From: an uncultured virus (IMG/VR IMGVR_UViG_3300040733_000035)
Lineage: Duplodnaviria > Heunggongvirae > Uroviricota > Caudoviricetes
Reading direction: 5' to 3' (one strand)
DNA length: 20,000 nt
Virus record (IMG/VR): IMGVR_UViG_3300040733_000035
Positions 1 to 20,000 of the stretch are shown piece by piece. The position numbers and the translations under genes are program-made. Under the pieces are notes generated by a model. The model searched no databases and had not been told where the DNA came from. It saw only the letters and a program-made list of their open reading frames with translations. Positions within the stretch are counted from its first letter, which is position 1. Every line of letters starts with the position of its first letter.

Positions 1-187
1 ACACCTCAATACCAGCGACCTCACCAAACGACTCGGATGGAAGCGTGAGTGGGGTAGCCAAATTCTGATTCTCGCCTGCGACTGTATAAGCTGCAGCAGT
101 ACCAACTCTGGCGTTGGCACCAACAGCAAGACCAGTCGTAGAGAAATCGAATTTATAATCAAATGCCTCTAAAGTATACGCGGCCAT
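1..187 (-). CDS. 5' part of a gene running off the left edge (MAAYTLEAFDYKFDFSTTGLAVGANARVGTAAAYTVAGENQNLATPLTLPSESFGEVAGIEV...); candidate abundant structural/capsid protein
   Basis: Own translation: ATG at 187, 62 open codons to the window edge, SD GGAGGT just upstream (ATGGAGGTTAATAATG), TATA TTTTATATAT at 230-221. Absent from the ORF track because it is truncated. Function is a guess. Confidence 0.85.
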   Translation of the reverse strand, partial: MAAYTLEAFDYKFDFSTTGLAVGANARVGTAAAYTVAGENQNLATPLTLPSESFGEVAGIEV

Positions 188-192
188 TATTA

Positions 193-230
193 ACCTCCAT
201 AAAACTGAATAGAAAATGTGATATATAAAA
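193..230 (-). promoter_or_regulatory. Archaeal TATA box (TTTTATATAT, 230-221) and SD (GGAGGT, 198-193) for the left-edge gene
   Basis: Motifs read directly; spacing fits a transcription start near 200 with a short SD-containing leader. Confidence 0.65.
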
Positions 231-295
231 CAAAGGTACAAAATAACAATACACCAAAAGAATGATATATGAATACAATAATTTATAGAAATTGC

Positions 296-466
296 ATGAC
301 ATCAAAAGTACACGTAAGTACGGCGGTGGGAAAAGAATACAAAACCGCATTCCACAAACGATGTATAGAAAATAACACGACAATGAGCAAAGTATTAGTA
401 GACGCGATGAAAGAATTCATGGATAGTCACCCAGAAAAACCATCGCGGTTTCAGGGAGTAACGTGA
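296..466 (+). CDS. Ribbon-helix-helix (CopG/ParG-like) DNA-binding protein, 56 aa
   Basis: MTSKVHVSTAVGKEYKTAFHKRCIENNTTMSKVLVDAMKEFM shows a beta-strand followed by two helices, the typical RHH pattern. ATG 296 preferred over 269 because a TATA-like ATATATGAA lies at about 265-273. Confidence 0.7.
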   Translation: MTSKVHVSTAVGKEYKTAFHKRCIENNTTMSKVLVDAMKEFMDSHPEKPSRFQGVT

Positions 467-494
467 GAGTTTGATGGAAAAAAGAGGAATAATT

Positions 495-920
495 ATGAAA
501 GAAATTAAAACAATCTGCCCGAATCCAGCATGCGATAGAGACATTTCACTGGACACATCAAAGATAATGCGAGCGATGATGAGAAAAAAACATACAAATG
601 GTATGCCACTGATCGGATGTCCGGCATGTTGCCATGTGATGATATTGCCAGACACAATACCGACAAACATGACAATGTTTGAGAATTTCGTAACAAATCT
701 AGAGAAAAACAACGAGTGGTTAGGAGATTGCGTGCCAATGATAGATCCGACCATGGTAAGAATGCCAACAGGAACAAGAAACGTTCATGGATCTACAATG
801 TATAGCTCAGGAACAGGAGAAATGCTTGACAAATACTCATACATGACGAAATACGGAATCGACCCAGAATGCGCGACATACAAAACTAATAAAAAACCAT
901 TCATAATACAAGACAGATAG
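495..920 (+). CDS. Zn-ribbon-containing hypothetical protein, 141 aa
   Basis: CPNPAC...CPAC(C) Cys pairs; SD GAGGA at 484-488 before ATG 495; followed by a T-tract. Confidence 0.75.
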   Translation: MKEIKTICPNPACDRDISLDTSKIMRAMMRKKHTNGMPLIGCPACCHVMILPDTIPTNMTMFENFVTNLEKNNEWLGDCVPMIDPTMVRMPTGTRNVHGSTMYSSGTGEMLDKYSYMTKYGIDPECATYKTNKKPFIIQDR

Positions 921-965: not shown

Positions 966-1802
966 TCACAATTTTTCGCACCTAATAGATACTTGGGCAG
1001 ACTGACCAGCAAGAGAATCAATCAATATATACGTCTTGGCAGCACCAACACAATCAATCTGGAACGATTGATACAATGGGTGACCAATGGCAGTCAACAT
1101 GGCGACAGTCTGCGTGTCACCGACATAAAAATTACCAGCATCATCCTCAAAGATAACAACGAGAGACAAAGATGGAACAGACCGATAATCCGCGACATAA
1201 AAATACACATGAGCAACGAGAAGAGTATAATCAGACGTATCAACACCAGTTATACCAGATAGAACATAACCGTTGTTAAATGAGAAAATCCCATTGTTAG
1301 ATGCAATACCTGTGCCAACTGCATCACAACGAACATCACCAGCCGCAACACCGGCGCTCGGAGAGACAACGGTGCCTACCGCAGACACCAACGCACCAGC
1401 GGCGCGTTGAGCCTCTGTGACTCTAGCAACCCACAATGGCGCAGCATCGGTAGAAAAGAAAACATCATAAAACGCAGCGCCGACAACCTGTGGAATAGTA
1501 ACATCCACCATATGAGTATCACTAGCATCATCGGCTGTAGAAACTGATCCAATGGAAGAAATACCACCAGGACCGAATTCATTAGAAGGGGAATAAGCAC
1601 TTTTATATTCAACATCGTGTGTGAGATGACCACCAAGGGCAACATCAGCACTAACAAGAGCCGCTGAAGAAACGACCAACTTATCAACCGCATTAATGAG
1701 AGATCGATGCAGAACACTTGACTGACGCCTGAACACACTACGAACCGGAAGAGGGATAGTGCCATCAAGCGCACTACGAATATCAGACTTAAAACCAGAC
1801 AC
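966..1802 (-). CDS. Beta-rich hypothetical protein (about 278 aa), likely virion structural protein
   Basis: Long ORF rich in Ala/Val/Ser/Gly with many predicted strands. GTG 1802 is preceded by GGAGTGA at about 5 nt; GTG 1811 is the alternative start. Confidence 0.75.
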   Translation of the reverse strand: MSGFKSDIRSALDGTIPLPVRSVFRRQSSVLHRSLINAVDKLVVSSAALVSADVALGGHLTHDVEYKSAYSPSNEFGPGGISSIGSVSTADDASDTHMVDVTIPQVVGAAFYDVFFSTDAAPLWVARVTEAQRAAGALVSAVGTVVSPSAGVAAGDVRCDAVGTGIASNNGIFSFNNGYVLSGITGVDTSDYTLLVAHVYFYVADYRSVPSLSLVVIFEDDAGNFYVGDTQTVAMLTAIGHPLYQSFQIDCVGAAKTYILIDSLAGQSAQVSIRCEKL

Positions 1803-1807
1803 GAAAA

Positions 1808-2290
1808 TCACTCCTTACCTGAGAAGCAATTAATACATTGCTTGAATTGTACTTGCAGTGAATTGACATTATCGATTGTACAATAAAATTTGCCACTCTG
1901 TGCAATCAATGGAGCCAGACCATTATTTTTAAGCCACGTAAGACAAGCGAGAACAACCGATTTGTCAAGACCAGTACCATCAACAACATCCTGAAAAGTG
2001 ACACATCCCTTGTCGAACATAGATGAAACAGCACGCAAATCATCGAGGGAGACAATATCAGAAGTCGCCACCGCGAGCTTAGGAGGAGAATAAGAAGACT
2101 CAGATTTGACGACAGTAAGATCATCAACGATGGATTTATTGGCAGACTCGACAACACTCAATGGAGATTCATTGACTTTAACAGCACCAAAAGAAAATTC
2201 TTGTGTAACCGGGGCAGCACCAGTGGAAACCGGATTGCCAGTTGTAGGAATTTCTTCAGTTATAACATCGCTATCAAGGATATCAGACAT
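1808..2290 (-). CDS. Protein with disordered acidic N-terminus and C-terminal winged-helix-like domain, 160 aa
   Basis: VTFQDVVDGTGLDKSVVLACLTWLKNNGL matches a wHTH pattern; terminal CINC; GGGAGTG SD upstream. Confidence 0.7.
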   Translation of the reverse strand: MSDILDSDVITEEIPTTGNPVSTGAAPVTQEFSFGAVKVNESPLSVVESANKSIVDDLTVVKSESSYSPPKLAVATSDIVSLDDLRAVSSMFDKGCVTFQDVVDGTGLDKSVVLACLTWLKNNGLAPLIAQSGKFYCTIDNVNSLQVQFKQCINCFSGKE

Positions 2291-2298: not shown

Positions 2299-3006
2299 CT
2301 ACACTCCCCTTGTATATATAGATGCATTAATCTTAGTTTTCTTGCCCCACGAACGAGGATTGCCATCGACATAAACAACTTTGGGAATTTTAATTTCCCT
2401 AGACAAAAAAACAACATCACCGGATGAAACAACGGGTATTTGAGGTGGAGCAAAGTCAACAGAAACAGACTTCTTGTATTCATCGGACAATTTAAGATTA
2501 AGCCAACCAGACCAAGCCTTGTTACCAATATTCTGAAATTCATAACCGATTACAGTAATCCCATCTAGATTGATGGAAGACGGAACAGATCTATTTCCTG
2601 TATGCCTAAGCAATGGACGATTTTGGAGATGACCATCGATGATATTAGACATTTTTTCGATGACACCACTGACAGCAACAGACAATTTATCAGAGTAATC
2701 TGTTATGTAATCAGCAAGCAACGAAGCTTCATCATCAGTTGAAATAGTCTTATTGTAATCTATGGATGCATTTTGAGCACGAACATTAAAACCAGACATC
2801 GCGTCATTGATTTTTGCAACGACCTCTGATTGGACGGATTGGGAAAACGATTTAACAGCCTCTTGGAATTTAGAACCATCAACATAAATCAAGACCGGAT
2901 GGAGATCTATATAAGGCTGTGCATAATCAAGTGAATGATTCACAAGTCCGAGCGCAGTGGAATACGCATAATCAATCTGCGATTTTGCAATATCTAGTGT
3001 AGTAAT
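2299..3006 (-). CDS. Helical stalk + C-terminal Ig-like domain protein (about 235 aa if started at ATT 3006; 214 aa from GTG 2943)
   Basis: C-terminal PLLRHTG...QNIGNKAWSGWL motif is paralogous to the upstream gene. The frame is open from 3006, and SD GGAGGA (3020-3015) lies 8 nt before ATT. Confidence 0.75.
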   Translation of the reverse strand: MTTLDIAKSQIDYAYSTALGLVNHSLDYAQPYIDLHPVLIYVDGSKFQEAVKSFSQSVQSEVVAKINDAMSGFNVRAQNASIDYNKTISTDDEASLLADYITDYSDKLSVAVSGVIEKMSNIIDGHLQNRPLLRHTGNRSVPSSINLDGITVIGYEFQNIGNKAWSGWLNLKLSDEYKKSVSVDFAPPQIPVVSSGDVVFLSREIKIPKVVYVDGNPRSWGKKTKINASIYTRGV

Positions 3007-4763
3007 GATTTCAATCCTCCATAAACGGTGTTGACTATAACAGATGGAACGACTGTGCCGCCGAGTGAAGACAAATTATATATTCTTGTACCTGGAACCT
3101 GGACAGACAATACAGAAGATTGTCCGGGGGAAACAAAACTAAATCCTATACGCTTGTTCCATCTAAAATAGGGAACATCATAATCACCAGTGAAAACATT
3201 ACCGGTTTCCTTGAGATACAATTCAGCATAAGTATCATAATCAACAGAACTAGTCAAAACTACACCAAGCCAACCAATCCAAGGAGAACCGCCGATATTA
3301 GAAACTCCAATCTTAAACACATTAGTAGACGCGACAACTTTACCATCATCATCAAGATTATAATCAAAACTACTTATGCGAGGAGGAGTAACAATATCAC
3401 CGGTGAAACGTAATAATGGAACATTAGTGTAATATCGATCTACAAATTTATCGAATTGCCGTGATAAACCGTCAGATATATGATTGATGTATGCAGAATA
3501 ATAAGTGAAATAAAGTGAAATCCTATCAACATACCTGGAAATTGCTACAGACAACTTGTCATTGATATACGAAACCTGGGACTCAGTAAGACCAGGAACA
3601 TTATTATTAATGTATTCAATAGAACTGGTCTGAACATCATTAAGATATGTGCTATAATTACTACTAAGAACAGAAACGCGGGAATTGTAATCAGCAAACA
3701 TTTTATTGATATGATCTGATATAGACGAAGACACTTGACTAAGAAGAGCAGATTTAGAATTCCTGTAATCAGGACCATCAACAAAGATGGGAGAATACCC
3801 AGATTTAAATTGTTTTTCAATATTAGAAAACACTGGTTCGGATCGCTTGGACAAATCGGAAATCAAGTTTTCAAGTTGATTGCGAACACGGACAGACTCA
3901 GCAAACATCTGTGAACTAAACTTGCATATAACAACTGAAAAAACATAATCCGACTTGTTATAAAGCATCGATGGAATAGACGAAAACAATGCAGACACGC
4001 GATCAGATGACGAGTCAATGGCAATCTTTACTTTATCCTGACTGGATGAAATCTCGTCAGATGAATACGTAGAATAATACTTATACGACGAAATAGATTC
4101 ATTGTAGACAGAATTGGCATCACCGAGAGAATCATTATATTCAGTTGATATTTCGGTGAGAATTTCATTGACATCTGTATAAAATCCAGGTGGAAGAACT
4201 TTATATGTATTGTAGATGGAAATGAGACTATTGATAGAATCGACAAGATGGGATTCAGCCAGAGCGATAGCAGCAATATATGAATCAGTAACGGCAATGA
4301 TGAAAAAATGCGCAGCCTTGTTCTGAGCAGAAGACAACGCCAATGAAAACTTGTCATTTGCATTAGAAAGCGCATCAGAAACGTGCTTGGTAGCAGAAGA
4401 CGTAGATTGTGAAATATGATCAGACAATGCAGAAATCTGAACCTGGAGAGAATCGTAATACGATTGATTGGGGAAGGATATTTGTGAAACATACAAATTG
4501 ATGCTCTGAGACGCAACATCGACACAAGCGGTGAGATCTGCGACAAAATCACCATATATACCAGTATTAGAATCACCAATGCCAACAGAAAACGCAGAAA
4601 TGACACGATCAAACACATCAGTGGACGTTGTGGGGATCAATGGAACAGAATTAACGTCACTAATGAGGGATGTAATAAACGAAGACAATTTATTATCAAA
4701 ATTTGTCAGTGCGCGTGCTATATCATTATCAAAAATGGTTTGAATGGAGGAAAGATCAGTCAC
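2994..4763 (-). CDS. Long helical/coiled-coil protein with C-terminal Ig-like domain, 589 aa
   Basis: Long ORF whose GTG overlaps the upstream TGA, with GAGGT SD. Amphipathic helical body followed by PLLRFTG...SNIGGSPWIGWL...VSPGQS, an Ig-like CARDB/NBR1-type pattern. Confidence 0.8.
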   Translation of the reverse strand: MTDLSSIQTIFDNDIARALTNFDNKLSSFITSLISDVNSVPLIPTTSTDVFDRVISAFSVGIGDSNTGIYGDFVADLTACVDVASQSINLYVSQISFPNQSYYDSLQVQISALSDHISQSTSSATKHVSDALSNANDKFSLALSSAQNKAAHFFIIAVTDSYIAAIALAESHLVDSINSLISIYNTYKVLPPGFYTDVNEILTEISTEYNDSLGDANSVYNESISSYKYYSTYSSDEISSSQDKVKIAIDSSSDRVSALFSSIPSMLYNKSDYVFSVVICKFSSQMFAESVRVRNQLENLISDLSKRSEPVFSNIEKQFKSGYSPIFVDGPDYRNSKSALLSQVSSSISDHINKMFADYNSRVSVLSSNYSTYLNDVQTSSIEYINNNVPGLTESQVSYINDKLSVAISRYVDRISLYFTYYSAYINHISDGLSRQFDKFVDRYYTNVPLLRFTGDIVTPPRISSFDYNLDDDGKVVASTNVFKIGVSNIGGSPWIGWLGVVLTSSVDYDTYAELYLKETGNVFTGDYDVPYFRWNKRIGFSFVSPGQSSVLSVQVPGTRIYNLSSLGGTVVPSVIVNTVYGGLKSLLH

Positions 4764-5605
4764 TCAAACAACCTCGGTGGAACCATGGAACGTGGAGATT
4801 GAGCAGCAAACGAAAACGAACCGCCGAGATCCGATGGACCAGACTGAGACTTACGAGACTCACTAACCTCCTTCTTAATATCGCCACGAGTCTTAAACAT
4901 GCTACTAAATATCATTTTCTTGGACAATATAGGATCACTGTCTTTAAACGCTGCCTCGGCGATATTAATTGCATCCTGCTTAACACGTTCGATGATGTCG
5001 GGGTCAAGAGAATCAATCATTTCATCTGAAAATGACTGCAACGCACGCTTATATGAGGGATCACTAACCAAACCAGAAGCAAAATCAGACAAAATACTAA
5101 GCCCTACGGACACTGTAACATCTCCGATGGGTTTAAGTCCGAGCTGCTTAGCAGCCTTAATACCAAATGACATATACTTAGGAAGAACGGGAAGAGCACC
5201 AGAAATGACATTGCCAGCAGAAACGCGAGATGGAGGAACAGAATTCGACTGAACTTCCAAATCATGTGATTTTGGAACAGACTCATAAGGACGTTTACCA
5301 AGACTCTGTGTAACCTGATCCATTGCATGACACACATTGCACCGCTGCAAAACAACCGCGAATTCATCTCCATCCATCAATTCTTCAATGGTATACAATG
5401 ACTTAGGATAGTCGACATAAGCAATACGAGTGCCATTGGCAACAGAATCAAATCCCATGCCATACTTAACACCAGTAGGACGATCATCACGACTCTTATA
5501 ATCAAATTCTTGTGGAGACTGCACATTAGGAGATCCATGTGATCGCCATCTATCGCCCATGTCAACAAATGTGACACCATTTCTTCCTTTATAACCACCA
5601 GACAT
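4760..5605 (-). CDS. Hypothetical protein, 281 aa, with a hydrophobic helix (VTVSVGLSILSDFASGLV) and a CNVCH motif
   Basis: TAATG coupling to the upstream gene; SD GGAGGA. Confidence 0.8.
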   Translation of the reverse strand: MSGGYKGRNGVTFVDMGDRWRSHGSPNVQSPQEFDYKSRDDRPTGVKYGMGFDSVANGTRIAYVDYPKSLYTIEELMDGDEFAVVLQRCNVCHAMDQVTQSLGKRPYESVPKSHDLEVQSNSVPPSRVSAGNVISGALPVLPKYMSFGIKAAKQLGLKPIGDVTVSVGLSILSDFASGLVSDPSYKRALQSFSDEMIDSLDPDIIERVKQDAINIAEAAFKDSDPILSKKMIFSSMFKTRGDIKKEVSESRKSQSGPSDLGGSFSFAAQSPRSMVPPRLFE

Positions 5606-5958
5606 TATTGATCTTCCTCCGTGCGAATATTAGCCAACAGACCAATGATCACGGATCTATATAACTCGAATAAAGCATCACTGCTATTTATCTGTTTCAT
5701 CAATTCAGGATAATTTTTGTCAATGACCAACGTGACAAGCGAACCGACTCCACGAATATCCATGCCATCAATAGCAGTCCGAATGTTACCAATATTTGAA
5801 ACAAAGTTTTGATCAGATGTTATAAGAGAGATGATTCTATCAGCAGGCAATTCCTTGAGTGTCGAATATGCAGAATACACCACATCAGGAGATGGAAACG
5901 GAATAGAACACACCAACACCCTAGCCAAAGGATTAATAAAAACATCATCGGAAGACAT
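5605..5958 (-). CDS. Hypothetical alpha-helical protein, 117 aa
   Basis: TAATG coupling at both ends; SD GAGGT. Confidence 0.8.
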   Translation of the reverse strand: MSSDDVFINPLARVLVCSIPFPSPDVVYSAYSTLKELPADRIISLITSDQNFVSNIGNIRTAIDGMDIRGVGSLVTLVIDKNYPELMKQINSSDALFELYRSVIIGLLANIRTEEDQ

Positions 5959-7127
5959 TAAAACCTCGAAGCAACAGACGCAGCATCAGTAGACATTTTA
6001 TGATTACTAAGCAGCTTACTCTCAACAAGAGGGGCAATTATTCCAGTGACAGTGCCTAGAGCAGACATGCGGCGCTGTTCGCGAAGCATCTCAATTTCAA
6101 GCTGCTTCTCTTCTTTGATGAACTGATGATCAAGCTTTTTATCCTCACGCAGATTAGCTGCACGTATACGCTCTTGTTCAGGAGTATCAGTGACCACATT
6201 AACACCGCCAGCGCGAGCCTGCTCAATCATATCGCGAAGCTGTGAAATTGGTATTTGGGGAGGACTGCGGGAAATCTCTTCAAGCTGATTAACACGATTC
6301 TGTAGAAATTCACGGTCTTTCTCGACTGCCTGTATCTGCAATTCAATTATTTTACTCTGAGACTCAGCAATTGCTTTAGCGGCTGCTTCCTGAGACGCGC
6401 GATTTTGTTCTTGCATATTCTTAAACAATTCAGAAAACGCAGCAGTATTTTTATCATTAATTTCTTTAAATGTTTGAACAATATTAGCAACTTCGACCGG
6501 TGGATGAGGATTGGAATTAGACATGGGAGGTGTAACGGCACGTTGTATCTCCATGCCAGCACGAAGCTGATCAACTAACATGGAACTAACACTATTTATG
6601 ACAGAAATAACGTCATTGGACGAGCTAGTAACAGGTTGCACAACAGGAGATGACTGTGATCGACTAATACCAGGGAACGGAAGAGGAGAGGTGGAAAGCA
6701 ACTCAGGATGATCATCAATAAACTTACGCTTGGCGTCATCAGATTCGAAATTTTTAAGGGCAGCATCGAGAATAGAAGCTCTATCAGTAAGAACGGCAGA
6801 ATTTAATAATCCACCAGGAACCGGAGATGATTGACGAACGACATTAGTAGGTGAAGTAAGTGATGCCAATTTTGCCTCTTCTTCACGTTTTAGTCGCTCA
6901 CTTTGCAACAACGCAGAATCCATGACATTCTGTTTCAAACGACCAAACGCATTACCTATCATCTCTTTTTGGGCAGCTTTGATAACATCATTGGGATCGA
7001 CCTCAGAAAATGTTATAGACGGGGGAAGACCATCAGACTGTATATTATCAGCATCAACAACCTCTTTAGCGACAGAAATGAGAGATTTTTTTGATTCTTT
7101 CTTAACAGACTCTGTTTCCTTTGACAT
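5958..7127 (-). CDS. Coiled-coil protein with Pro/Ser-rich linkers and C-terminal amphipathic/hydrophobic helix, 389 aa
   Basis: Heptad-like Q/E/K-rich segments; LGTVTGIIAPLVES near the C-terminus; first gene of the operon, TATA about 26 nt upstream. Confidence 0.85.
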   Translation of the reverse strand: MSKETESVKKESKKSLISVAKEVVDADNIQSDGLPPSITFSEVDPNDVIKAAQKEMIGNAFGRLKQNVMDSALLQSERLKREEEAKLASLTSPTNVVRQSSPVPGGLLNSAVLTDRASILDAALKNFESDDAKRKFIDDHPELLSTSPLPFPGISRSQSSPVVQPVTSSSNDVISVINSVSSMLVDQLRAGMEIQRAVTPPMSNSNPHPPVEVANIVQTFKEINDKNTAAFSELFKNMQEQNRASQEAAAKAIAESQSKIIELQIQAVEKDREFLQNRVNQLEEISRSPPQIPISQLRDMIEQARAGGVNVVTDTPEQERIRAANLREDKKLDHQFIKEEKQLEIEMLREQRRMSALGTVTGIIAPLVESKLLSNHKMSTDAASVASRF

Positions 7128-7185: not shown

Positions 7186-7545
7186 ATGTCAGGAATGAAA
7201 AAACCGCCAATAAAGCGAAAAAGAGGCGAACGATGCAAAGGAAAACTAAACATAGATGAAGCATGGTCGAGATTGCCGGAGAGCCAAAGTGAAAGACAAG
7301 TTAAAATACAATTCTACGTAAACAAAGAACTACGGGACAGAATGAAAAACGTAGCACCGATGTTAATAGAAATGGAAAAAAACAACGAAGGTGGAGGAAT
7401 AAAGAGAAACACACCTGGAATGTTCTGTGAATACTGTTGTAAGACAGTCACGACGGGACTGGAACAAATAATAAAAACCATGCTAGAACAAGAAAAACCT
7501 AGAGGAAACGATGCCATCGCATATACTACACATAACAATGGATGA
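7186..7545 (+). CDS. Basic protein with RHH/Arc-like segment, 119 aa; putative transcriptional regulator
   Basis: QVKIQFYVNKELRDRMKNVA...TPGMFCEYCCKTV resembles an RHH strand-helix-helix; K/R-rich N-terminus. Confidence 0.65.
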   Translation: MSGMKKPPIKRKRGERCKGKLNIDEAWSRLPESQSERQVKIQFYVNKELRDRMKNVAPMLIEMEKNNEGGGIKRNTPGMFCEYCCKTVTTGLEQIIKTMLEQEKPRGNDAIAYTTHNNG

Positions 7546-7807
7546 GCTATTGTTTGGAAGAGGAACATTTTTTCCAGATGTACACAAATACATGGACAAA
7601 ATGCAACCATACCTACAATCAAATCACAGGATATATGGACACGATATGCAAACTGTATATGATATATACACAATGTCAGGAAACGAGACGATGGCATTAT
7701 CAGCATACTTTCATATATTATTGGATCTAGTTTCAGATGAGGTAGGGCAAGAACACGCAATAGCAGAATTAACAAGAAGAATCGCGAATGGAGAAATACA
7801 AACATGA
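7511..7807 (+). CDS. Small His/Asp-rich putative metal-dependent hydrolase, 98 aa
   Basis: Motif MPSxxxH...VHxxMD...HRxxxHD...HILLD is typical of small all-helical metal-binding hydrolase-like proteins; SD GAGGA at 7502-7506. Confidence 0.7.
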   Translation: MPSHILHITMDELLFGRGTFFPDVHKYMDKMQPYLQSNHRIYGHDMQTVYDIYTMSGNETMALSAYFHILLDLVSDEVGQEHAIAELTRRIANGEIQT

Positions 7808-8181
7808 TTGATATAAAGAAAGAAGATGAAAAGTGTCCAAGATGCGAAATGGACAACATTATGATAGGAATGGCAGTAGCACATGTGGCATGTGGTGGAA
7901 TAAAAAACGATGACGACCGGGGAGAATGCAACGAATGGGCAGCAAGCTTAGATCCGAACAAAATGTCTGCAATGGATATAATGGGAACGCTATACGATAA
8001 ATACGGAATAGACGGCTTATCGAGATTTCCAGAACTACACACAAAAATGATAAGAAGGCTAGTAATAAGCAAGGTAGGCGAAAAATTGGAAAAAGGAATA
8101 CCAATAACAACAGAAGAACAAGAATTGTTCAATAGATACACCAAAGAAGAAACGAAGGACGGAATAAAACAGGGGGTATAA
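7804..8181 (+). CDS. Cys-containing hypothetical protein, 125 aa
   Basis: ATGA overlap with the upstream stop; CPRC plus two further Cys. Confidence 0.8.
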   Translation: MIDIKKEDEKCPRCEMDNIMIGMAVAHVACGGIKNDDDRGECNEWAASLDPNKMSAMDIMGTLYDKYGIDGLSRFPELHTKMIRRLVISKVGEKLEKGIPITTEEQELFNRYTKEETKDGIKQGV

Positions 8182-8183
8182 GC

Positions 8184-8984: not shown

Positions 8985-9076
8985 TGGACATACAAACGAG
9001 AATGATATTAGAATTAAACGAACATGGACCAATGCCAATAAAAGACATCGCGATACATGTAAAGGGAGACAAAAAA
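8962..9076 (+). repeat. 17-bp direct repeat TAAAGGGAGACAAAAAA at 8962-8978 and 9060-9076
   Basis: Exact match read from the sequence; encodes KGDKK in both adjacent genes. Confidence 0.6.
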
Positions 9077-9319: not shown

Positions 9320-9330
9320 TTCTCGGTACA

Positions 9331-9368
9331 TTCTTTTTTATACAACAACAAATAACAGGAATACGGTG
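9331..9368 (+). promoter_or_regulatory. T-tract terminator overlapping a TATA box (TTTTTTATA 9334-9342), plus SD GGTGA for the basic protein gene
   Basis: Motifs read directly between the 9319 stop and ATG 9376. Confidence 0.55.
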
Positions 9369-9375
9369 AAAAGAA

Positions 9376-10866: not shown

Positions 10867-10965
10867 ATGGACATGAGCAGTAAGATATTGGACGAAATAA
10901 GGAAAGCAATCAAAGAAATCAATGAAAAAGCAAACGAAGTAATGAAGAAACAGGAGAAAAAATAA
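10867..10965 (+). CDS. Putative 30-32 aa coiled-coil micropeptide (MDMSSKILDEIRKAIKEINEKANEVMKKQEKK)
   Basis: Heptad periodicity, + strand codon style, TAATG coupling to the giant gene, TATA at the expected distance. Confidence 0.5.
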   Translation: MDMSSKILDEIRKAIKEINEKANEVMKKQEKK

Positions 10966-13900
10966 TGGCGACAAATCCATTTGGAAAAACTGTATACAAT
11001 GAACCAACCCAAACAATAACATTCAAGAACACATTTAACACGAATGCACCGAGGTTTGTTGGGCTGGATGTAAACTATGGAAAAACACAAACTTACAACA
11101 ACACATACAACACGATAAAACTATCAAACGAAGCAATTGAAGCGGCACAACGACAACTGGAAACAACGAAAGCTGAAATGATAAAGAACGTAACAAAATC
11201 ACTAGAATACCTGAAAACAACGTATGACATTAATATAAAGCCAATCAGCATAAAAACAATTGAAATACAAAACAACACGATAGAAAACGCGAGAAATGAA
11301 ACAGACTTGATAATACAAGAGGCGATACAAAAAATACAAACAATATCAACCGAGGAACTAATAAAAGCAAACACAACGTCAGTAATAACAGAAATAAAAA
11401 ATGCTGCAATGCGAAGCCTAGAAGCATTACAAACAATGAAAAATATATCGATGGAAGATATAAAGAAAGTACAAAACGCAGTGATTGGAGAGATAATATA
11501 CAAGTTTGCAGGAAATGATGCAGAAACAACATTGCTCAGTGTAAAAGATATAAACAATACTAAAATACTAAAAGAATGGCTAATCGAGAATAACAAAATA
11601 ACAGAACAAGAACTACAGACAGTAGACGCGATAGATATCAAAAACACAGTGACAAAAAACAGCGAAATGGTATTTATAATGGACGATATCAAAAAAGACG
11701 CGAAAATGTTGAAATGGTTAGAGGACAGAGGATACATAACTGATGTTGAATTAATTAGCGGAAAATTGGTAACAAAGAAAACTGTAGACGGAAAAACGGC
11801 GTTCGAATCAATAATGGAATACAATAAAGAAAACAAAACAACATACGAACCAAAACAGATACTAGCAGAAGCGCCTGTGGGATGGGACACGCCGGTAACA
11901 AAGAAACAGACAACATGGAGACAAACAGAAAACAAAACAATAAAATTCGACGAACCTATACAATTGAAAGACTCTCAGATAAAGACAACACAACCAACAC
12001 AGGATAAAGACGGAAAATTCATAGTGGAAACAATAGACACAAATGGAAAGCTACTGAGAGAAAAATACGCAACGGAATCAGATGCAAGAGCACGAATGAA
12101 TTACCTGATAGAAAACAACCAAGAAATAACAAAAACACTGAAAGAAATTGTGCCTGAAAAAACATCAGTGCAATCGTATGCAATACTAAAGAGATATAAC
12201 CAGGACGGAGAAAAAATAAGCGATGACATACGTATAGGAGCAAGAGGAGCAACAGTAGAGGAGACGGAAAGACAATTGAAATATGAGATAGAAAGACAAC
12301 AACAACTAGACGAACGAAAAGGAATAACAATAAAATCATACGAAATCCAGAACCACGACAGCGGAAAGACAAAAGAGATAACCATATTATCAATTGGAGG
12401 AACTGAAACAAAAATGCATGTGACAGAAAAAATAATACCAGAAGTAAAACAATCAATGACGGGAGCAGGAGAATTGCTATACACTGAGCAAAAACAAAAA
12501 GAAATGGAAGAAAACAAAAAATTACAAGAAGCATTAAATTCAATAAATGCGAGCTTAATGCCAAATGGAAAAGGAATTTCAATTTCGGCACAATCACTCC
12601 AATTAGGAAACGTGCAAATAGAAAATGGAAAAATATCAGTAAACGGAAAAGAATATTACACAAAAACAATACCAAAATCATACGAAGTGACAGACTGGAC
12701 AAAAACAATGAAAAATATGGAATCAAATGCACCAGATTTACTAAAACCAGTCGCATCTACAATATATTCACTGTTCGCAGGAACTACTCAGAAATTATCA
12801 AACAATGGATTAGTAAAAGAGACATACACACAAGGAGAATATACAAACGATTGGTCGTTATTCAAAGTAATGTCATTCTGGGGAAGAGAATTGCAATCTG
12901 GAACGGCTGCAGTATTATATGGAAACAAAACAATAGACGCCGATACCGCCTGGACTGGAAATTACAACGTGGAAATAACAACAAAAGGACAACAATTCAT
13001 AGATAATGTCGGAATGAACTGGGCAAACAACGGAAAAGTAACGAATTCGATAGGACTATCAGATAAAGAAGCAAAAATAAGTGTACTGGAATACGCAAGC
13101 CCGAACGTTTTAAACAACATACAGCAAAAACAATCAAAAGATCTGGCAATCATGGCATACAACCCAACAACAAAAACAGCATTAATAGACGCATACGGAT
13201 CAACGACAGTGAATAACATAATAAATTCAAACAAACTAACACAACGGGATATAGAAAATGTAAACACAGACGTTGTATTAACCGTGTGGAATGCAATTAC
13301 AGACCAACGAATAACAGGAACACCACTAGACCCATTTATAACGATACTAGGAGGAGGCATTTTAGGTATAGAGGGAAATGTTATTGGAAAGGTAGGAAAA
13401 GTAACTGCAAAAGTAGGGGCAGTTAAAGACTTCGCAACATTCATCAAAGAAGCAAAAATAGTAGTGCCAACGACAACGGGAATAACAACGATAACAGATG
13501 TAATATCAAACACTGCACTTGGTTCATTGAAGATAGCACCGACTGCAATAATACCAAACAGCGGTGTAATAGCAAAAGACATCATATCACCAAAGACAAT
13601 ATCAGAAGCAACGAAATTAAAAACAGAAATAACAGAACTGAGAAAATCACTGGACAAAGGAATAACAAACACACAGAATTCAGAAGAATTTGTGACAAAA
13701 CTACTAAACACAGACACAAACACGGCGAGGGCAGCACTAACAGAATTCATAGCAACTACACCAAACGATGTGTATGGAGTAATAAGCAAGGGAACATACA
13801 ACATATTGCCAGAAAATGCACTGAGAGCACAAAATTTGCTAGAATCAGCAAACACTGAATACAAAGCACTATCAAATGCAGTAATAGAGAATATAGTAAT

Positions 13901-16661
13901 AAAATCAAACGGGAACACAGTAGAAGCTGCAAAACTACTACAACAAAAGAGCAATGAACTGGGAAAAGACACAGTAAACTACATGATAAACACAGCACAA
14001 CACGAGGGAACAAAATATTACAACGAAATAACAAACGCAGTGAATGAGTGGGAAAAATTAGAAAATGCAGGAAAAATAACAATAGCAACACAACAACCGC
14101 CGAACGGAACACAAATAACAAGTGTATTCTCGACAGCAGAAACAAGTAAGATAGAAAATGAAATCGGAACACTTGAAAACTTGAGAAGCTTATCAGCAAG
14201 CGATAAAAAAATATTATCGGATAAAACAGGAATACCAATAAACAGAATAACATACCACCAAAAACGAGCAGAAACTTATTTGGCATCATTTAAACCAAAA
14301 GAACAGACTGGGTGGATATCCGGTAACGTGGAAGTAGACAGATTAACAGACATTGTAAACGCAGCAGAACGAAATACAATAGACGTAATAAGAGACACAA
14401 CGAAACTATCGAGGAATGGAATAGAAACACTAAAAGATGTGGCAAGCATAAAACCGAATGAAATAACACTGATTGCAAAGAAAACCGGAATAGATGAAAC
14501 TGCACTAAAATTGTACAGAGAAGAAGCTTCAAATGCTATAATGTGGAAAGAAAACGAAGAAACACTAAAAGATATGGGATGGAAAATAGAATCTCCAACA
14601 AAGAAAGGAGAAGACACATTCGAAGAGACGATACTACCAGAAACAGACGAGATAATTGTCTCAGATGAACTGAAGTTGCTCGGAATTGAAAGTGATGGAA
14701 TAGGTGGATGGAAGATAACAGATGCTAACATAAAAGAAATGAGCAACAAAGAATTTAATAGATTGATATACAGGGATCGAGACAAATTTGCACCAGTAAT
14801 CGGAAAGATAACAAAAGAAGACATAAACAAACTAGACATAACAAGAACACAAAAAGACAGACTGATAAGTGCACTTACAACGAAAAAAACAAACATAGCA
14901 GATACAACAAAGATAACAGAAATGAAAAGAAGACTGGAAAACGAGACAAACGTACTAGCAGATCTAATGGACGAATATGCACAAAAAAGCAAACAAAAAG
15001 GAAATACAAGTGAACTTGAAAAATTATCAAGAGAAATAAACAAACAACGGGAAGTAGTAAGGGCATTCGACACTGAAATAGGAATACAAAGTGACATACT
15101 ACGAGAGATGTCAACAAAAATGAAACCATCGGCACAAGAAATGAAAATAATTGAAAGACACGCAGAAAACATGAAAAACGAAGTAAAAAGGCAAAACGAA
15201 CTGATTGAAAGAGTGAAAAACATGCCTGGAAACAGGAAACCAAGTGAAGCAGCAAAGAACACACTAGACGAAATAAGAAAAGGAAACTTCGAAGAAGCAG
15301 CGAATAAATTAAAAGAATCAAATACGCACAGTAAAACAACGTTACTACCGAATGATGCAAATGCATACAAAGATGTAAGCATTGCAAAAATAAGAAGACT
15401 GGAAGAATACGGAGCACCACAGAAATTGGTAGACCAGTTGGTAGTAGAAAGATCAAATCATGCTCTAAAAGAACTAGCAACAAAACCAGGAATGAAAAGA
15501 ACAGAATATATGATACGCAATGGGGAAATATCAGAACTAAGTGACGAAGAAATACTGACATTGTGGAAAAATGAAAGACAACTTGGATTGGATGCAACTG
15601 AAGATGTGTACGGAAAAGAACCAAACGGATTATTAAAAAGATTAACAGACGACGCAATAAAATCAGGCGATAAATCGAGGATGGAAAAGCTAGCAGAAGA
15701 AATGAGAAAAGAAAAAGCAGACTGTGTGCTAAGAGGAGAATGCGGGATAGGATCAACTGGATCAAGCACAATGAAAACCATGGGAGCAGGACTACTAGTC
15801 GCCGGAGCAATGACAACAACGATAACAATGGCAGACGGAACGACATGGTTGTACGACGCTGATAAGAACATGTACATGGAAATAGAACCAACAGCAGCAG
15901 CAATACGCAATATGGGAGCAACAACACCAGAAAATAAAAATTACGCACTGAGAAGCAGCGAACTTGGACCAGAAAGCGTAAACAAAGAAATTGTAAGGGC
16001 ATTCGATATATACATGAAAAGTGGATTACCAGGAAAACAGTACACAGAAGGAAACGTGAAAGGAATACAAGGAACAAAAATAGACACAGGGGAACGGATA
16101 TGTCAGAATTTCGCAATTGAAGCGGCCAATTACATAAATAACAACCAAGAACTATCAAAAATGGGGATAAAAGCAAACGTTATTGGCGTAATTGGAACAG
16201 ATGTAAACGGAAAAGCGGTGAGTCATGTATTGGTATCAATTGAAAACATGAACAAACCAGTCGGATCATACACAAATCCAGTAACGGGAAAAACCGAAAC
16301 ATTATACGAGAAAACACTATTAGAACCACAGACGGGGCAAACGGGGGAAACTGGAACGGATTTCACCGGAACAAAGATGATGCTAGGTGATAGTGAATAT
16401 AAAATAGAATACACACAAGCAATGAGAAACGCAGAACAATCGATAATATACGGACCGAAAAATGAGAAAGCTGGAATAACACAAGCACCAACGAGGGGAA
16501 CAGACATGTTGATACACACAGCAGAATCAATGCCACAAGTTGACAAGACAATAGAAATCGACAGACTGGCAGGAGCGAACGAAACATATCTAGAAAGTGA
16601 AAAAATAAACCCATTTGTAACAATTGACGTAAACACACCAGTAAAGAGAATAAACGGGTGA
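10965..16661 (+). CDS. Giant multidomain protein, 1898 aa: coiled coils, two hydrophobic segments, two HhH-like repeats, C-terminal transglutaminase/papain-like Cys-His-Glu domain
   Basis: Uninterrupted ORF; SD AGGAG; ICQNFA (Cys1713)...GIKANVIGV...SHVLV (His1754)...LLEPQTG (Glu1787); GIETLKDVASIKPNEITLIAKKTGID is HhH-like. Confidence 0.9.
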   Translation: MATNPFGKTVYNEPTQTITFKNTFNTNAPRFVGLDVNYGKTQTYNNTYNTIKLSNEAIEAAQRQLETTKAEMIKNVTKSLEYLKTTYDINIKPISIKTIEIQNNTIENARNETDLIIQEAIQKIQTISTEELIKANTTSVITEIKNAAMRSLEALQTMKNISMEDIKKVQNAVIGEIIYKFAGNDAETTLLSVKDINNTKILKEWLIENNKITEQELQTVDAIDIKNTVTKNSEMVFIMDDIKKDAKMLKWLEDRGYITDVELISGKLVTKKTVDGKTAFESIMEYNKENKTTYEPKQILAEAPVGWDTPVTKKQTTWRQTENKTIKFDEPIQLKDSQIKTTQPTQDKDGKFIVETIDTNGKLLREKYATESDARARMNYLIENNQEITKTLKEIVPEKTSVQSYAILKRYNQDGEKISDDIRIGARGATVEETERQLKYEIERQQQLDERKGITIKSYEIQNHDSGKTKEITILSIGGTETKMHVTEKIIPEVKQSMTGAGELLYTEQKQKEMEENKKLQEALNSINASLMPNGKGISISAQSLQLGNVQIENGKISVNGKEYYTKTIPKSYEVTDWTKTMKNMESNAPDLLKPVASTIYSLFAGTTQKLSNNGLVKETYTQGEYTNDWSLFKVMSFWGRELQSGTAAVLYGNKTIDADTAWTGNYNVEITTKGQQFIDNVGMNWANNGKVTNSIGLSDKEAKISVLEYASPNVLNNIQQKQSKDLAIMAYNPTTKTALIDAYGSTTVNNIINSNKLTQRDIENVNTDVVLTVWNAITDQRITGTPLDPFITILGGGILGIEGNVIGKVGKVTAKVGAVKDFATFIKEAKIVVPTTTGITTITDVISNTALGSLKIAPTAIIPNSGVIAKDIISPKTISEATKLKTEITELRKSLDKGITNTQNSEEFVTKLLNTDTNTARAALTEFIATTPNDVYGVISKGTYNILPENALRAQNLLESANTEYKALSNAVIENIVIKSNGNTVEAAKLLQQKSNELGKDTVNYMINTAQHEGTKYYNEITNAVNEWEKLENAGKITIATQQPPNGTQITSVFSTAETSKIENEIGTLENLRSLSASDKKILSDKTGIPINRITYHQKRAETYLASFKPKEQTGWISGNVEVDRLTDIVNAAERNTIDVIRDTTKLSRNGIETLKDVASIKPNEITLIAKKTGIDETALKLYREEASNAIMWKENEETLKDMGWKIESPTKKGEDTFEETILPETDEIIVSDELKLLGIESDGIGGWKITDANIKEMSNKEFNRLIYRDRDKFAPVIGKITKEDINKLDITRTQKDRLISALTTKKTNIADTTKITEMKRRLENETNVLADLMDEYAQKSKQKGNTSELEKLSREINKQREVVRAFDTEIGIQSDILREMSTKMKPSAQEMKIIERHAENMKNEVKRQNELIERVKNMPGNRKPSEAAKNTLDEIRKGNFEEAANKLKESNTHSKTTLLPNDANAYKDVSIAKIRRLEEYGAPQKLVDQLVVERSNHALKELATKPGMKRTEYMIRNGEISELSDEEILTLWKNERQLGLDATEDVYGKEPNGLLKRLTDDAIKSGDKSRMEKLAEEMRKEKADCVLRGECGIGSTGSSTMKTMGAGLLVAGAMTTTITMADGTTWLYDADKNMYMEIEPTAAAIRNMGATTPENKNYALRSSELGPESVNKEIVRAFDIYMKSGLPGKQYTEGNVKGIQGTKIDTGERICQNFAIEAANYINNNQELSKMGIKANVIGVIGTDVNGKAVSHVLVSIENMNKPVGSYTNPVTGKTETLYEKTLLEPQTGQTGETGTDFTGTKMMLGDSEYKIEYTQAMRNAEQSIIYGPKNEKAGITQAPTRGTDMLIHTAESMPQVDKTIEIDRLAGANETYLESEKINPFVTIDVNTPVKRING

Positions 16662-16666
16662 TAAAA

Positions 16667-18967
16667 ATGACCGGAAAATGCAGTAGTTTGGACAATTTCG
16701 AAAAATCACTGACAGACGCAGCCAGTGAACAAAAACAAACAACGGGTAAAACAACGACACAACCAGAAAGGAGAAGTAATATAGCAACAATGGGGAAAAA
16801 TAAGATTGATGAAATATTAGACCCACTGCGAGAAATGGAAAAAAGAGCAGCGAAAAATATAGACGACCCGGAAGAAACAGCAGCAATTGCAAAGGAAAAA
16901 CAAGAGTACGGAGGTGACACGAAGCCAGGATCACCGGGAATGAGACTGAACGCCGCAATGGGTGATGCACAGGTTAAAGAATATCTAAAAACAGTGTCGA
17001 CAAATGAATACTCTAAAATGTATTCAGATATACAGGGATGGTTCGGTGGAGAATATGGGACACAAGGAGCAATGGGAAGACAACTTGAGAAAGCATACAA
17101 AAATGCAAGAGTGGAAAAACTCGGAGAATATTTGCCAGATACTGGAATGGGAAAAATATTAAAAGCAAAAACAAACGGAATCGCAGGACGAGGATTCATA
17201 CAAGACGGCGATTTGAAATTCTTCGATGCAGCAGATACGGCGATAGAAAAGATGGACGGAATAGTAAGCGGGAATGCTAGGAAAACATACAACGAATTGA
17301 AAAACGGACTTGGAAGGGAAACAACCGACGAATTGTTTAGTGAAAAGATAGCAGAAAACATACAAACACTTAGAAAACTATTACCGGACAACACATTCGC
17401 AGACAAGATGATAAAAAAATCACTGACAAGCGACGAAATGAAAGTGTTAAAGGAAATAGAATCAGGAAAACGGCCAATGGATGCAACATCATTTGAAGTA
17501 ATAAACAAAATGATAGAAAAAATATCGGACGATGGATGGAACGAAATAAATAAGATAACATCACCATTGGACGAACTGGACACAACCACGAAATCACAAA
17601 TACAAGCAAGAGGATGGACAAAGGCAAACAAAACAATTGCAGGACTCGGTGTAGCAGGAAGCGCGATATGGATAACAACGGTAACAATACCAGACAAACT
17701 AAACAATTGGGGGCAATTCGGATTGACAAATTCCGCAGAAATGTCAACATTGTTCGGGCAATTCGACAAGGACACGACTGCGGAGAGATTGTTACAACTG
17801 TGGTTTCCAACGGAGAAAAGAAAAGAGGCAATGGAATTGTGGTTAGACTCGGCGAAATATTACATTGGAATAATGGAAGCAGTATACAAAATACCAATAT
17901 ATGGTGAATGGTTGAAAGGAACAACATTTGTGGGATACTCATCGGCAGTATCATCACTCGGAAATCTAGACACAATAATGACAGCATTAGAAAACAGAGG
18001 ACTAGCAACAAGAGACGAAACAACAAAGTCGGGGTGGAGAGAAACAACAGAACAAGAAAGAAAGAACATATATGGAAAAAACGCAGAAAAACTATTCTCA
18101 AATGACGCCGAATGGGTAAACAAATATTTAAATGAAAAAAAGACAAATGTATACAAATCTGGTAAAAGCGGAAAAGAATTAACAGAAGCACAAGCAATGG
18201 CACTGTACTACGCCGAAAATGGAATGGCAGTGAAACTGTCAGATTTCGGATTGACAGCGAGCGACTTAAACGATGAATCACTGATGATAGCAGTAAGAAA
18301 GTATGGAGAAAACAGGGACACATCGAAAAAAAGTGAAAGCGAATCAAAATATTCACTAAACGAATTGACAAACATGGGACTAACATGTAATATGGGAAAC
18401 ACATGCACACAAGAAGATTATTCGAAAAACATAGCAAATGGATGGTTCGTGTATAAAGATAAAAACACAGGTTTAGCAACGTGGGGGCAACCAGGAGATA
18501 ATGTGGGAAACGTCGAGATACTAGAAAAAGGAATGCGAGACACCGTGGGATCAGGATTAACAGGAACAATTGGATCAGGGGGAAACGGAGGAACGGGAGG
18601 AGGAGAAATATATGCACGAAAAACAGACACTGCAGATAGCAGCAAAAAGACAAGAGCAAACCCAACAGTGTCACAACAACAATCGCTAGACCAAGTAAAA
18701 AACAATGAAAAAACACTAAGTTCAAAAGATGTAGATGCACTGAAGGTAAACGGTGTAGTAGACATAACAACCGCAAAGGAAAATGGAATACCAATACAAA
18801 ATTTGGCTGCAATCGACAGAGAAGCAACCGTAGGTGGATTTAAAACATACGCAGTAGATATGAAAAACACCAATAAAATAGACAAAAGCGATTACGAAGC
18901 AATGAAAAAAGAAGACGCTGCAGCAACAAGAGCTGCAATAAGAAGCGCATACGGATGTGATCAGTAA
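16667..18967 (+). CDS. Large hypothetical protein, about 766 aa, with one central hydrophobic/TM-like segment and a Gly-rich linker
   Basis: SD GGTGA before ATG 16667 (GTG 16658 is the alternative); TIAGLGVAGSAIWITTVTIP; GSGGNGGTGGG. Confidence 0.88.
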   Translation: MTGKCSSLDNFEKSLTDAASEQKQTTGKTTTQPERRSNIATMGKNKIDEILDPLREMEKRAAKNIDDPEETAAIAKEKQEYGGDTKPGSPGMRLNAAMGDAQVKEYLKTVSTNEYSKMYSDIQGWFGGEYGTQGAMGRQLEKAYKNARVEKLGEYLPDTGMGKILKAKTNGIAGRGFIQDGDLKFFDAADTAIEKMDGIVSGNARKTYNELKNGLGRETTDELFSEKIAENIQTLRKLLPDNTFADKMIKKSLTSDEMKVLKEIESGKRPMDATSFEVINKMIEKISDDGWNEINKITSPLDELDTTTKSQIQARGWTKANKTIAGLGVAGSAIWITTVTIPDKLNNWGQFGLTNSAEMSTLFGQFDKDTTAERLLQLWFPTEKRKEAMELWLDSAKYYIGIMEAVYKIPIYGEWLKGTTFVGYSSAVSSLGNLDTIMTALENRGLATRDETTKSGWRETTEQERKNIYGKNAEKLFSNDAEWVNKYLNEKKTNVYKSGKSGKELTEAQAMALYYAENGMAVKLSDFGLTASDLNDESLMIAVRKYGENRDTSKKSESESKYSLNELTNMGLTCNMGNTCTQEDYSKNIANGWFVYKDKNTGLATWGQPGDNVGNVEILEKGMRDTVGSGLTGTIGSGGNGGTGGGEIYARKTDTADSSKKTRANPTVSQQQSLDQVKNNEKTLSSKDVDALKVNGVVDITTAKENGIPIQNLAAIDREATVGGFKTYAVDMKNTNKIDKSDYEAMKKEDAAATRAAIRSAYGCDQ

Positions 18968-20000
18968 TGGCGTGTCCAATAACAATGCAACAACAAATTA
19001 AAAACGACCTGTTGGCAGGGGGGATGTCAGAAGAGCAGGCAGAAAGAGAACTGGCAACATTCATAACAACACCAGAAGATATACAACAGGGAATAGTAGA
19101 TGACAAAACACTCACAAACGTAGTAACAATGAATACGTATGGAGATCTGAAAAATACAGCAGCATCGAGTATAGCAGAAAAATGGAGTATAAATAAGGTA
19201 ATAAACAACGGATTACAAAAAGACACAGCAATTGTAAGCGAATACACTAAGAAAGGAATAGATATAAAAACTATAGATAATGTGCTGCATGGAAGAGATT
19301 GGACAGACATACCAATTGAAGACGGGAAAACCGAAAAAGAAACACAGCAAAATGCACAAGATTTGACAGCACTTGTAATGGCTGGACATCCAGAAGCAGT
19401 CAAATTCGTGAACGATGTTATAAATGCAGCATTCACAGGAAACGAAGACACAAAAAACATGGCAGTGGTGCTTTTAGACATATTAGGAAAAGGAGGGATG
19501 ACAGAAAAATATGGAACAACAAAACCAACCGGGAGAATAGAAAATTTCGCCAAATTCGCAGATGAAATATACAACGTATACTATGATAACATATATAACA
19601 TTCCACCAGACAAACTGAAAACAGAAGACGGAAATATAACATGGATAGATGGAATAGGAGGAAAACACAAAACAGTACTAACAGAAATGGGAGGGCAGGC
19701 AGTTTATGACCCATTAACAGGAAAAATGAGAACAATTACAGACGAATACATACAGCAAACAATACAGATAGACAAATACACGAAACTGGAATTAAACAAA
19801 GACGCATACGCAAAAGCTGTACTAGAATACGTCACGAACTTCATGAACACTCCGACAGAAGACAAAACGAAACTTGAAAAAATAGTACAAGAATTCAGCG
19901 AAAAAATAATGCCTAACATGGAAAATCCAGCAAACAACAGCTTAATGTGGGCGTGTACGGGATCAGGTTGTGTTGCTATGGAAGGAAGCGGTGGAGGCGG
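18967..20000 (+). CDS. 5' part of a large hypothetical protein (>344 aa; MACPITMQQQIKNDLLAGGMSEEQAERELATF...WACTGSGCVAMEGSGGG) running off the right edge
   Basis: Own translation: ATG 18967 overlaps the upstream TAA and the frame is open to 20000. Missing from the ORF track because it is truncated. Confidence 0.88.
   Translation, partial: MACPITMQQQIKNDLLAGGMSEEQAERELATFITTPEDIQQGIVDDKTLTNVVTMNTYGDLKNTAASSIAEKWSINKVINNGLQKDTAIVSEYTKKGIDIKTIDNVLHGRDWTDIPIEDGKTEKETQQNAQDLTALVMAGHPEAVKFVNDVINAAFTGNEDTKNMAVVLLDILGKGGMTEKYGTTKPTGRIENFAKFADEIYNVYYDNIYNIPPDKLKTEDGNITWIDGIGGKHKTVLTEMGGQAVYDPLTGKMRTITDEYIQQTIQIDKYTKLELNKDAYAKAVLEYVTNFMNTPTEDKTKLEKIVQEFSEKIMPNMENPANNSLMWACTGSGCVAMEGSGGG

Follow-up and report, generated by a model that had tools for sequence, protein, structure and literature searches.

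What keeps one strand of a viral genome rich in adenine, whichever way its genes point? The question is raised by a window of 20,000 nucleotides (nt), the whole stretch of DNA analysed here, from the uncultured virus IMGVR_UViG_3300040733_000035. Its totals are A 8311, T 3964, G 4097 and C 3628, so that A makes up 41.6% of the + strand and T 19.8%, with bulk skews of +0.354 for AT and +0.061 for GC, and A exceeds T in 20/20 of its 1-kb bins. A preliminary description had noted this richness in A from two hand-counted lines (11281-11340, A33/T8/G11/C8, and 1441-1500, A25/T8/G14/C13), and both counts were exact on recount. In this work we show that the skew is real, inherited, strand-tied and unusually strong, and we read it as a variant of replication-linked asymmetry. 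Its cause, on balance, is probably a T-rich strand left single-stranded or unrepaired for long by asymmetric replication in one direction.

Silent sites were sampled in 20 non-overlapping open reading frames (ORFs), hand-picked from the 83 listed. Read on the coding strand, four-fold degenerate sites are A.70, C.05, G.17 and T.08 in + genes (n=1523) and A.15, C.19, G.11 and T.55 in - genes (n=1258). Read on the + strand, these figures give AT skews of +0.79 and +0.58, and A exceeds T in 20/20 ORFs (each p<0.05). The + strand is therefore A-rich under both gene orientations, with no flip. The strand-tied component of the AT skew is 0.68 and the transcription-tied component 0.11 (0.43 and 0.15 for GC), which bears out the earlier proposal that the bias belongs to the strand and not to transcription. 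The GC skew had been called small in the two hand-counted lines, and this holds in bulk only: at silent sites it reaches +0.58 in + genes and +0.27 in - genes, with G>C in 19 of the 20 ORFs, and the bulk value of 0.06 is kept low by codon positions 1 and 2, which cancel out. Since silent sites favour G over C besides A over T, the asymmetry is one of purine against pyrimidine, beyond AT alone. Within the window we found no strong motif-specific context for the bias, only a mild avoidance of TA and AG, and no notable direct or inverted repeats.

The window proteins are encoded on a virus contig of 64,458 bases. One of them, a 281-amino-acid (aa) protein encoded on the - strand (966..1811), was the route to L032, a relative of 53 kb that has a Prim-Pol gene and regions in common with four window proteins. 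A profile of the L032 primase led in turn to three complete virus records, G001 (67,553 bases), G002 (69,399) and G003 (69,061). These are circular permutations of one another, and the 'terminal repeat' of G003 is merely a 6-base tandem repeat. For 18 of the 20 window ORFs there is a match in at least one of the three, in the same order and relative orientation. These matches bear on the idea that the pattern is an artefact of shadow-ORF gene calls, assembly error or sequencing damage. A-rich DNA does yield long shadow ORFs on its opposite strand, and one was miscalled in G002, but same-orientation homologs of so many ORFs in three separate records refute the idea; the - genes include the capsid protein and a nuclease, and reading frames are intact. 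We judge an artefact to be extremely improbable.

The sign of the skew is the same all around the complete circles. When only genes with 15 or more A+T silent sites are counted, the A-rich strand has more A than T in 74/74 genes of G001, 74/76 of G002 and 73/74 of G003, and the same is true of 104/104 2-kb windows, with no reversal above 27 sites. The search for a skew inversion, suggested earlier, thus gave no AT-skew flip in 3/3 complete circular relatives, and with a single sign all around, each circle is one replichore. About 70% of the coding DNA lies on the A-rich strand. One of the three exceptional genes is the shadow ORF miscalled in G002, and another is found only in G003. The latter (G003:C1:10422-12179), absent from G001 and G002, is unskewed (A60/T60), as expected for a recent arrival; it is probably a recent acquisition, and the skew could act as a residence clock.

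A good example of how the strand imposes its composition is the 281-aa gene. On the T-rich strand of the window its four-fold sites are T94/A19, as against A102/T17 on the A-rich strand of L032; a further relative, L031, has T85/A37, and six outside homologs are roughly balanced (A40-60/T26-80). Genes, as this one shows, re-equilibrate their codons after changing strand. The protein moves with the codons: compared with the L032-type protein, aligned residues of the window protein differ in the predicted direction in 38 cases as against 17 (p 0.006), although similar shifts are seen against most outside homologs too. Replication proteins of the A-rich strand shift the opposite way relative to unskewed homologs in 5/5 pairs (3 at p<0.05), a comparison in which GC content is a confounder. 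The skew pushes homologous proteins in opposite directions by strand.

The strand switch is also what tells most clearly on selection, which could act through two codon programmes (A-ending for early genes, T-ending for late ones) or in favour of an unstructured purine-rich strand. The - genes are mainly structural and the + genes mainly early or replication genes, and a transcription-tied component of 0.11-0.15 is present, both as selection would have it. However, intergenic DNA of the window (405 nt; A184/T94/G72/C55) is skewed too, the large, probably structural + genes match the replication genes in A content, and host-like genes show about even use of codons ending in A and in T. As the same gene flips with its strand, selection is already largely refuted and we hold it to be very unlikely.

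The preliminary description had spoken of two amino-acid dialects, and part of this stands. In the window K, E, M, T and N are raised in + genes and S, V, F and P in - genes, while I, L and D differ little between the two. Genome-wide in G001-G003 only the split of K/E/M against S/V/F/P/Y holds; T and N are flat there, their excess being peculiar to the giant ORFs of the window. The dialects partly reflect gene function.

Such a skew is not ordinary among related viruses or hosts. Of 41 other loci of at least 5 kb, 40 have a pooled silent-site |AT skew| of <=0.28, the exception being the relative L032 (0.59), and seven 20-kb segments of four host-like genomes have strand-tied AT skews of -0.15 to +0.14; the skew of the window is far above both. 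We further compared it with a small, hand-picked panel of reference viruses, using larger annotated genes only, and our own ORF caller for Aeropyrum coil-shaped virus (ACV). On the virion strand of single-stranded DNA (ssDNA) viruses the AT skew is -0.63 in M13, -0.77 in phiX174, -0.51 in FLiP and -0.49 in HRPV-1, the last with the same polarity as the clade formed by the window's virus and its relatives. Seven double-stranded DNA (dsDNA) controls (PM2, MetSV, STIV, PRD1, phi29, psiM2 and 12 kb of phi40:1) range from -0.27 to +0.17 on the main coding strand. In those with genes on both strands (PM2, STIV, PRD1 and phi29) strand-tied AT skew is absent, and the skew of PRD1 flips with gene direction.

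The T-rich strand of the clade is closest to M13, phiX174 and FLiP, and is unlike the seven dsDNA controls and the host-like chromosomes. Its silent sites in the window (A/C/G/T.15/.19/.11/.55) compare with.13/.19/.09/.58 in M13,.08/.21/.11/.60 in phiX174 and.19/.13/.11/.57 in FLiP, and Jensen-Shannon values for the clade against M13 and phiX174 are 0.001-0.021. With these two phages the likeness is near identity, including C>G. The clade differs from them in a genome about ten times larger, in the placing of some 70% of its coding DNA on the A-rich strand, in the possession of a PolB, primases and helicases of its own, and in that no Rep_1 or Rep_trans Rep was found in it. The bias works like the T-rich bias of ssDNA phages, yet the clade is outside those families in size, Rep and replication genes. 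What we describe is a known effect, strand asymmetry, here with ssDNA-phage strength and spectrum in a 64-69 kb archaeal virus that has its own replisome.

The asymmetry may equally be set beside that of bacteria, mitochondria and G004, a distant virus of 89,732 bases with the same primase family, PolB and helicase. Like theirs, it is strand-tied, independent of gene direction and able to reshape codons and amino acids. Classical skew separates keto from amino bases (G+T from A+C) and flips at the origin and the terminus, as seen in G004, whose ordinary two-replichore keto skew flips near 20-21 kb and 60-65 kb, with a flip adjoining the homologous primase gene. In contrast, the skew of the clade separates purine from pyrimidine and never flips (3/3 circles). 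A match to the capsid protein of the clade was not found in G004.

One sign around the circles, a flip with the strand and an unusual strength together argue for asymmetric, one-directional replication, and to this extent the preliminary description, which had proposed asymmetric replication, was right. Copying, by strand displacement or in a rolling-circle-like manner, would proceed in one direction from a single origin, probably an inverted-repeat block beyond the PrimPol-helicase gene. The T-rich strand would persist, whether as an intermediate or inside the virion, as template that is single-stranded or unrepaired, and would there suffer C deamination, G oxidation and purine loss. With dA inserted opposite the lesions, C, G and A would drift to T and the partner strand to A, and the codon and amino-acid differences of the two gene sets would be a passive result of this mutation pressure. 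These three changes, C>T, G>T and A>T, are the ones expected when dA is inserted opposite uracil, 8-oxoguanine or an abasic site in damaged single-stranded template. Passages of PMC4032129 describe high C>T in ssDNA phages, and passages of PMC10341727 the A-rule for Klenow and RB69 (family-B) polymerases.

In order to estimate rates we fitted a reversible two-sequence model to G002 and G003, which differ by 0.42 substitutions per site over 5,403 silent sites. The fit puts C>T, G>T and A>T on the T-rich strand at 4.1, 5.1 and 3.5 times their complements, and C>T is the fastest inferred change. Deamination had earlier been discounted on the ground that the skew was mostly AT. This argument fails, as the silent-site GC skew is large, C>T is fastest and the order T>>C>A~G is that of ssDNA phages. 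Polarisation with G001 as the outgroup was saturated (53% identity at silent sites) and is not relied on.

The replication genes of the relatives allow another source of the same errors. A Pfam and PHROG scan of 67 proteins of G003 and one further ORF found PolB, an XPB-like helicase, a Prim-Pol/Zn-finger protein, an NrS-1-like primase, a methanogen-type thymidylate-synthase homolog, a dCMP deaminase and homing endonucleases. Of the replication genes that the preliminary description had named as candidates, a primase is thus present and PolB is of an archaeal cellular type rather than pPolB. A rolling-circle Rep was not found: Rep_1 and Rep_trans are absent from 3/3 records, no HUH triad is conserved between G001 and G003 core genes, and Pfam and PHROG scans of window and G003 proteins gave no Rep family. 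In a dsDNA virus that replicates in one direction, the two strands might be made by different enzymes, a proofreading PolB as against an error-prone Prim-Pol or NrS-1-like primase-polymerase, with dA errors arising without long ssDNA exposure; or the nucleotide pool might be dATP-rich and pyrimidine-poor. The relatives have three polymerase-type genes, and the thymidylate-synthase-like gene occurs in 3/3 of them. For the A-rich strand the order of incoming bases is A>G>=T>C, the exchangeabilities being fairly even (0.37-1.12), and the AT skew shows no trend around the circle (rho -0.17, 44 core genes, p 0.28), a flatness that suits uniform exposure as well. However, G001 and G002 are equally skewed and lack the dCMP deaminase of G003, outside homologs of the PrimPol-helicase (L097-L103) sit in unskewed DNA, and neither enzymes nor pool account for the convergence on the composition of M13, phiX174 and FLiP, phages that use host polymerases. 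Enzymes and pool, taken jointly, are a possible but doubtful cause.

For the one-directional replication that we favour, a starting point can be suggested. Along the A-rich strand the share of G climbs as the primase gene is approached (rho 0.69, 29 core + genes) and is reset 1.3-2.0 kb beyond the primase stop. At this reset G001-G003 have an inverted repeat with a conserved 9-base core and arms 0.6-1.3 kb apart, which lies shortly after the PrimPol-helicase stop and encloses small genes in DNA rich in G and poor in C; L032 retains the left 9-base core. Because the composition resets there and the G004 skew flip lies beside a homologous primase, the block is the likely origin, and it holds candidate priming or packaging sites. 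A C-depletion gradient over all genes mostly vanished in core genes and was dropped. In L032, nested hairpins with a perfect 14-base arm pair within a 19-base pair stand before the early genes (L032:17008-17093), and L032:16001-16250 contains only 4 C in 250 bases.

Several points weigh against long exposure of the T-rich strand. The single-stranded state, which the preliminary description had also invoked, is an inference from composition, and what is said of the replication genes, the missing packaging ATPase and the origin comes from relatives rather than from the window's own contig. ACV, though an ssDNA virus, has an AT skew of only -0.13, the two - genes of PRD1 are T-rich on the coding strand without an ssDNA genome, and genes of the reference ssDNA phages lie nearly all on the virion strand, where strand and coding are inseparable. 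The rate ratios mostly restate base frequencies, and the UNREST model was not better than GTR or HKY by the Bayesian information criterion. The G gradient runs opposite to the direction predicted by simple exposure of the T-rich strand. Lastly, in anoxic hosts oxidation would be a less likely source of G>T.

What particle carries this genome? The left-end gene of the window belongs to P0194, a 412-aa protein whose N-terminus equals the ORF at 2..187 and whose model has a predicted local distance difference test score (pLDDT) of 84.6. The model matches the PRD1 capsid (Z 10.1, root-mean-square deviation 4.2, 252 aligned, residues 1-408 covered), the major capsid protein (MCP) of STIV (Z 9.3), PM2 P2 (Z 7.8) and the FLiP MCP (Z 7.0). 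Cellular enzymes of the double-jelly-roll (DJR) fold score similarly (Z 10.6, the highest value, and 9.8). Given the structural match, the viral context and the high conservation, we read the gene as that of a putative DJR capsid protein. Scans of 20 window and 67 G003 proteins gave no HK97 capsid, terminase or portal; with the predicted DJR capsid in their place, membership of Caudoviricetes was rejected. The capsid gene (G002:C1:30962-32191, G003:C1:27577-28806, G001:C1:55730-56959) seems to start with an Ile codon directly after a stop in G001-G003 and with Met in the window, and standard callers shorten it to 340 aa. A second highly conserved (76-98%), beta-rich protein of 327 aa (G003:C1:20013-20996) is perhaps a capsid or penton protein; its model (pLDDT 36) is unusable.

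We found no match to Pox_A32 or DUF87 (FtsK/HerA, A32-like packaging ATPase) in G001-G003. A Walker-A scan of their ORFs of at least 100 aa gave only the PrimPol-helicase and three loose matches that do not look like ATPases, with a pattern that also missed the Walker motif of the SF2 helicase; a divergent packaging ATPase may yet be present. It is conceivable, if unlikely, that the T-rich strand alone is packaged, as a 64-69 kb circular ssDNA virion with an ATPase-less DJR capsid, the duplex then being rebuilt by the virus's own primases and PolB. Such a virion would be about 2.7 times the largest known, that of ACV (24,893 bases, or 24.9 kb; called the largest known ssDNA virus in passages of PMC9643867), and would carry a dsDNA-virus-type gene set. 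This raises a testable question, that of whether an ssDNA virus can have a genome of more than about 25 kb. Should the virion prove to be dsDNA, the clade would still be a natural setting in which to study a PrimPol-helicase replisome that runs in one direction and makes strand-specific errors. The skew may serve as a sequence-only marker for the replication or packaging mode of an uncultured virus group.

Among known viruses, FLiP (Finnlakeviridae) shares the DJR capsid, the lack of a detectable packaging ATPase and the T-rich signature. However, FLiP is bacterial, is described as rolling-circle replicating and has 9,174 bases, as against 64.5-69.4 kb in the clade, and FLiP-like membership was set aside on genome size and the rolling-circle Rep. 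Passages of PMC5894146 describe a DJR capsid without a packaging ATPase for FLiP (ssDNA) and for a 7-11 kb Odin group; the latter has the ATPase absence in common with the clade and differs in size, on which membership was rejected. STIV, MetSV and Coyopavirales resemble the clade in a tailless DJR-type capsid and an archaeal host, whereas the clade is 4-6 times larger and has a cellular-type PolB and a PrimPol-helicase. Neither STIV nor MetSV has a comparable skew, and the MetSV record annotates a putative ATPase. Chaacviridae (Coyopavirales) have 10-11 kb and a pPolB according to passages of PMC9894754. Membership there was rejected, the PolB of the clade being cellular-type, of 884 aa, in a genome of the size given above.

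The clade is apparently an undescribed group of large (64-69 kb) tailless circular DJR viruses. Neither the capsid nor the primase query matched any phage record, and the capsid query matched no plasmid; nothing was found when viral contigs were scanned with each of two window proteins, or by protein alignment A2 against viral and genome contigs, and a capsid profile gave no provirus in 14 genomes. Our literature search returned no description of the clade or its skew, although subscription papers on methanogen viruses may already name the clade; in PMC9796341, on methanogen viruses, a term search led to one passage, which mentions neither jelly roll nor skew.

The host, judging by the archaeal PolB, is most likely a methanogen of Methanosarcinales type. 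The nearest solved structures to this polymerase are Thermococcales-type enzymes. It is 46-50% identical to the PolB of 6 of 61 Halobacteriota genomes, presumably Methanosarcinales, in which the neighbouring genes look methanogen-like, and full-length matches elsewhere reach <=36%. CRISPR spacers gave only chance-level matches in 37 of 401 Halobacteriota genomes (best E 1.8e-4), with 0/10 inspected loci array-like.

Features of the window, and the inverted repeat of the relatives (identities are to G001-G003)
Feature	Position	Strand	Remark
Putative DJR capsid protein, start; ORF cut by the left end	2..187	-	N-terminus identical to P0194
Small ribbon-helix-helix/Arc-like regulator	269..466	+	weak match, E 0.01; four-fold A15/T0; RHH_1 match of G003 homolog E 8e-4, under cut-off
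CxxC-containing protein, no assigned function	471..920	+	not found in G001-G003
281-aa virus-associated protein	966..1811	-	T-ending codons here, A-ending in L032
Conserved protein, no assigned function	1808..2290	-	49-51%
Conserved protein, no assigned function	2299..2943	-	51-57%; C-terminal domain with paralogs on both strands
589-aa Ser-rich conserved protein, probably helical	2994..4763	-	48-50%
Conserved protein, no assigned function	4760..5605	-	40-50%
Conserved protein, no assigned function	5605..5958	-	40-45%
Conserved protein, no assigned function	5958..7127	-	35-40%
Six small conserved genes	7186..9591 (7186-7545, 7511-7807, 7804-8181, 8184-8984, 8912-9319, 9376-9591)	+	order kept in relatives
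Thermonuclease-like domain and PEGA domain	9607..10827	-	lone - gene among + genes; four-fold T123/A19 on coding strand
1898-aa K/E/T/N/I-rich protein, probably virion-associated	10965..16661	+	four-fold A531/T61
769-aa conserved protein	16658..18967	+	clade-specific
Start of another large gene	18967..19998	+	next gene in G003 has weak PEGA-domain match
Inverted repeat	L094:13582-14343, L095:13407-14781, L096:13630-15024, L032:15995-16050

Some further observations concern individual genes. The PrimPol-helicase (G003:C1:52695-55685, L114:12695-15685) is a fusion of about 1000 aa of a Prim-Pol, a Zn finger and an SF2-like helicase; its C-terminal half has no Pfam match and weakly resembles SF2 helicases. 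Homologs also occur beside integrase-like genes in contigs of metagenome-assembled genomes (L099-L102) and in the 90-kb virus G004. A conserved protein spanning the record ends (G003:C1:67905-322) has a long (Pro-Ala)n linker coded by the 6-base tandem repeat; it had no solved-structure match, and a role as a single-stranded-DNA-binding protein is only a guess. Of a pair of neighbouring conserved genes (G003:C1:23277-25878), one has a weak glycosyltransferase match; this pair and the thymidylate-synthase homolog (G003:C1:5575-6321) are a possible DNA or capsid modification system.

The right part of the window (10965-19998) is taken up by three consecutive very large + genes (1898, 769 and >344 aa) with no family assigned, whose order is conserved and which are variably split or expanded in relatives. 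Finally, the window is depleted in GGCC (6 seen, 16 expected), GTAC (31 and 48) and GATC (59 and 78), which suggests restriction avoidance.

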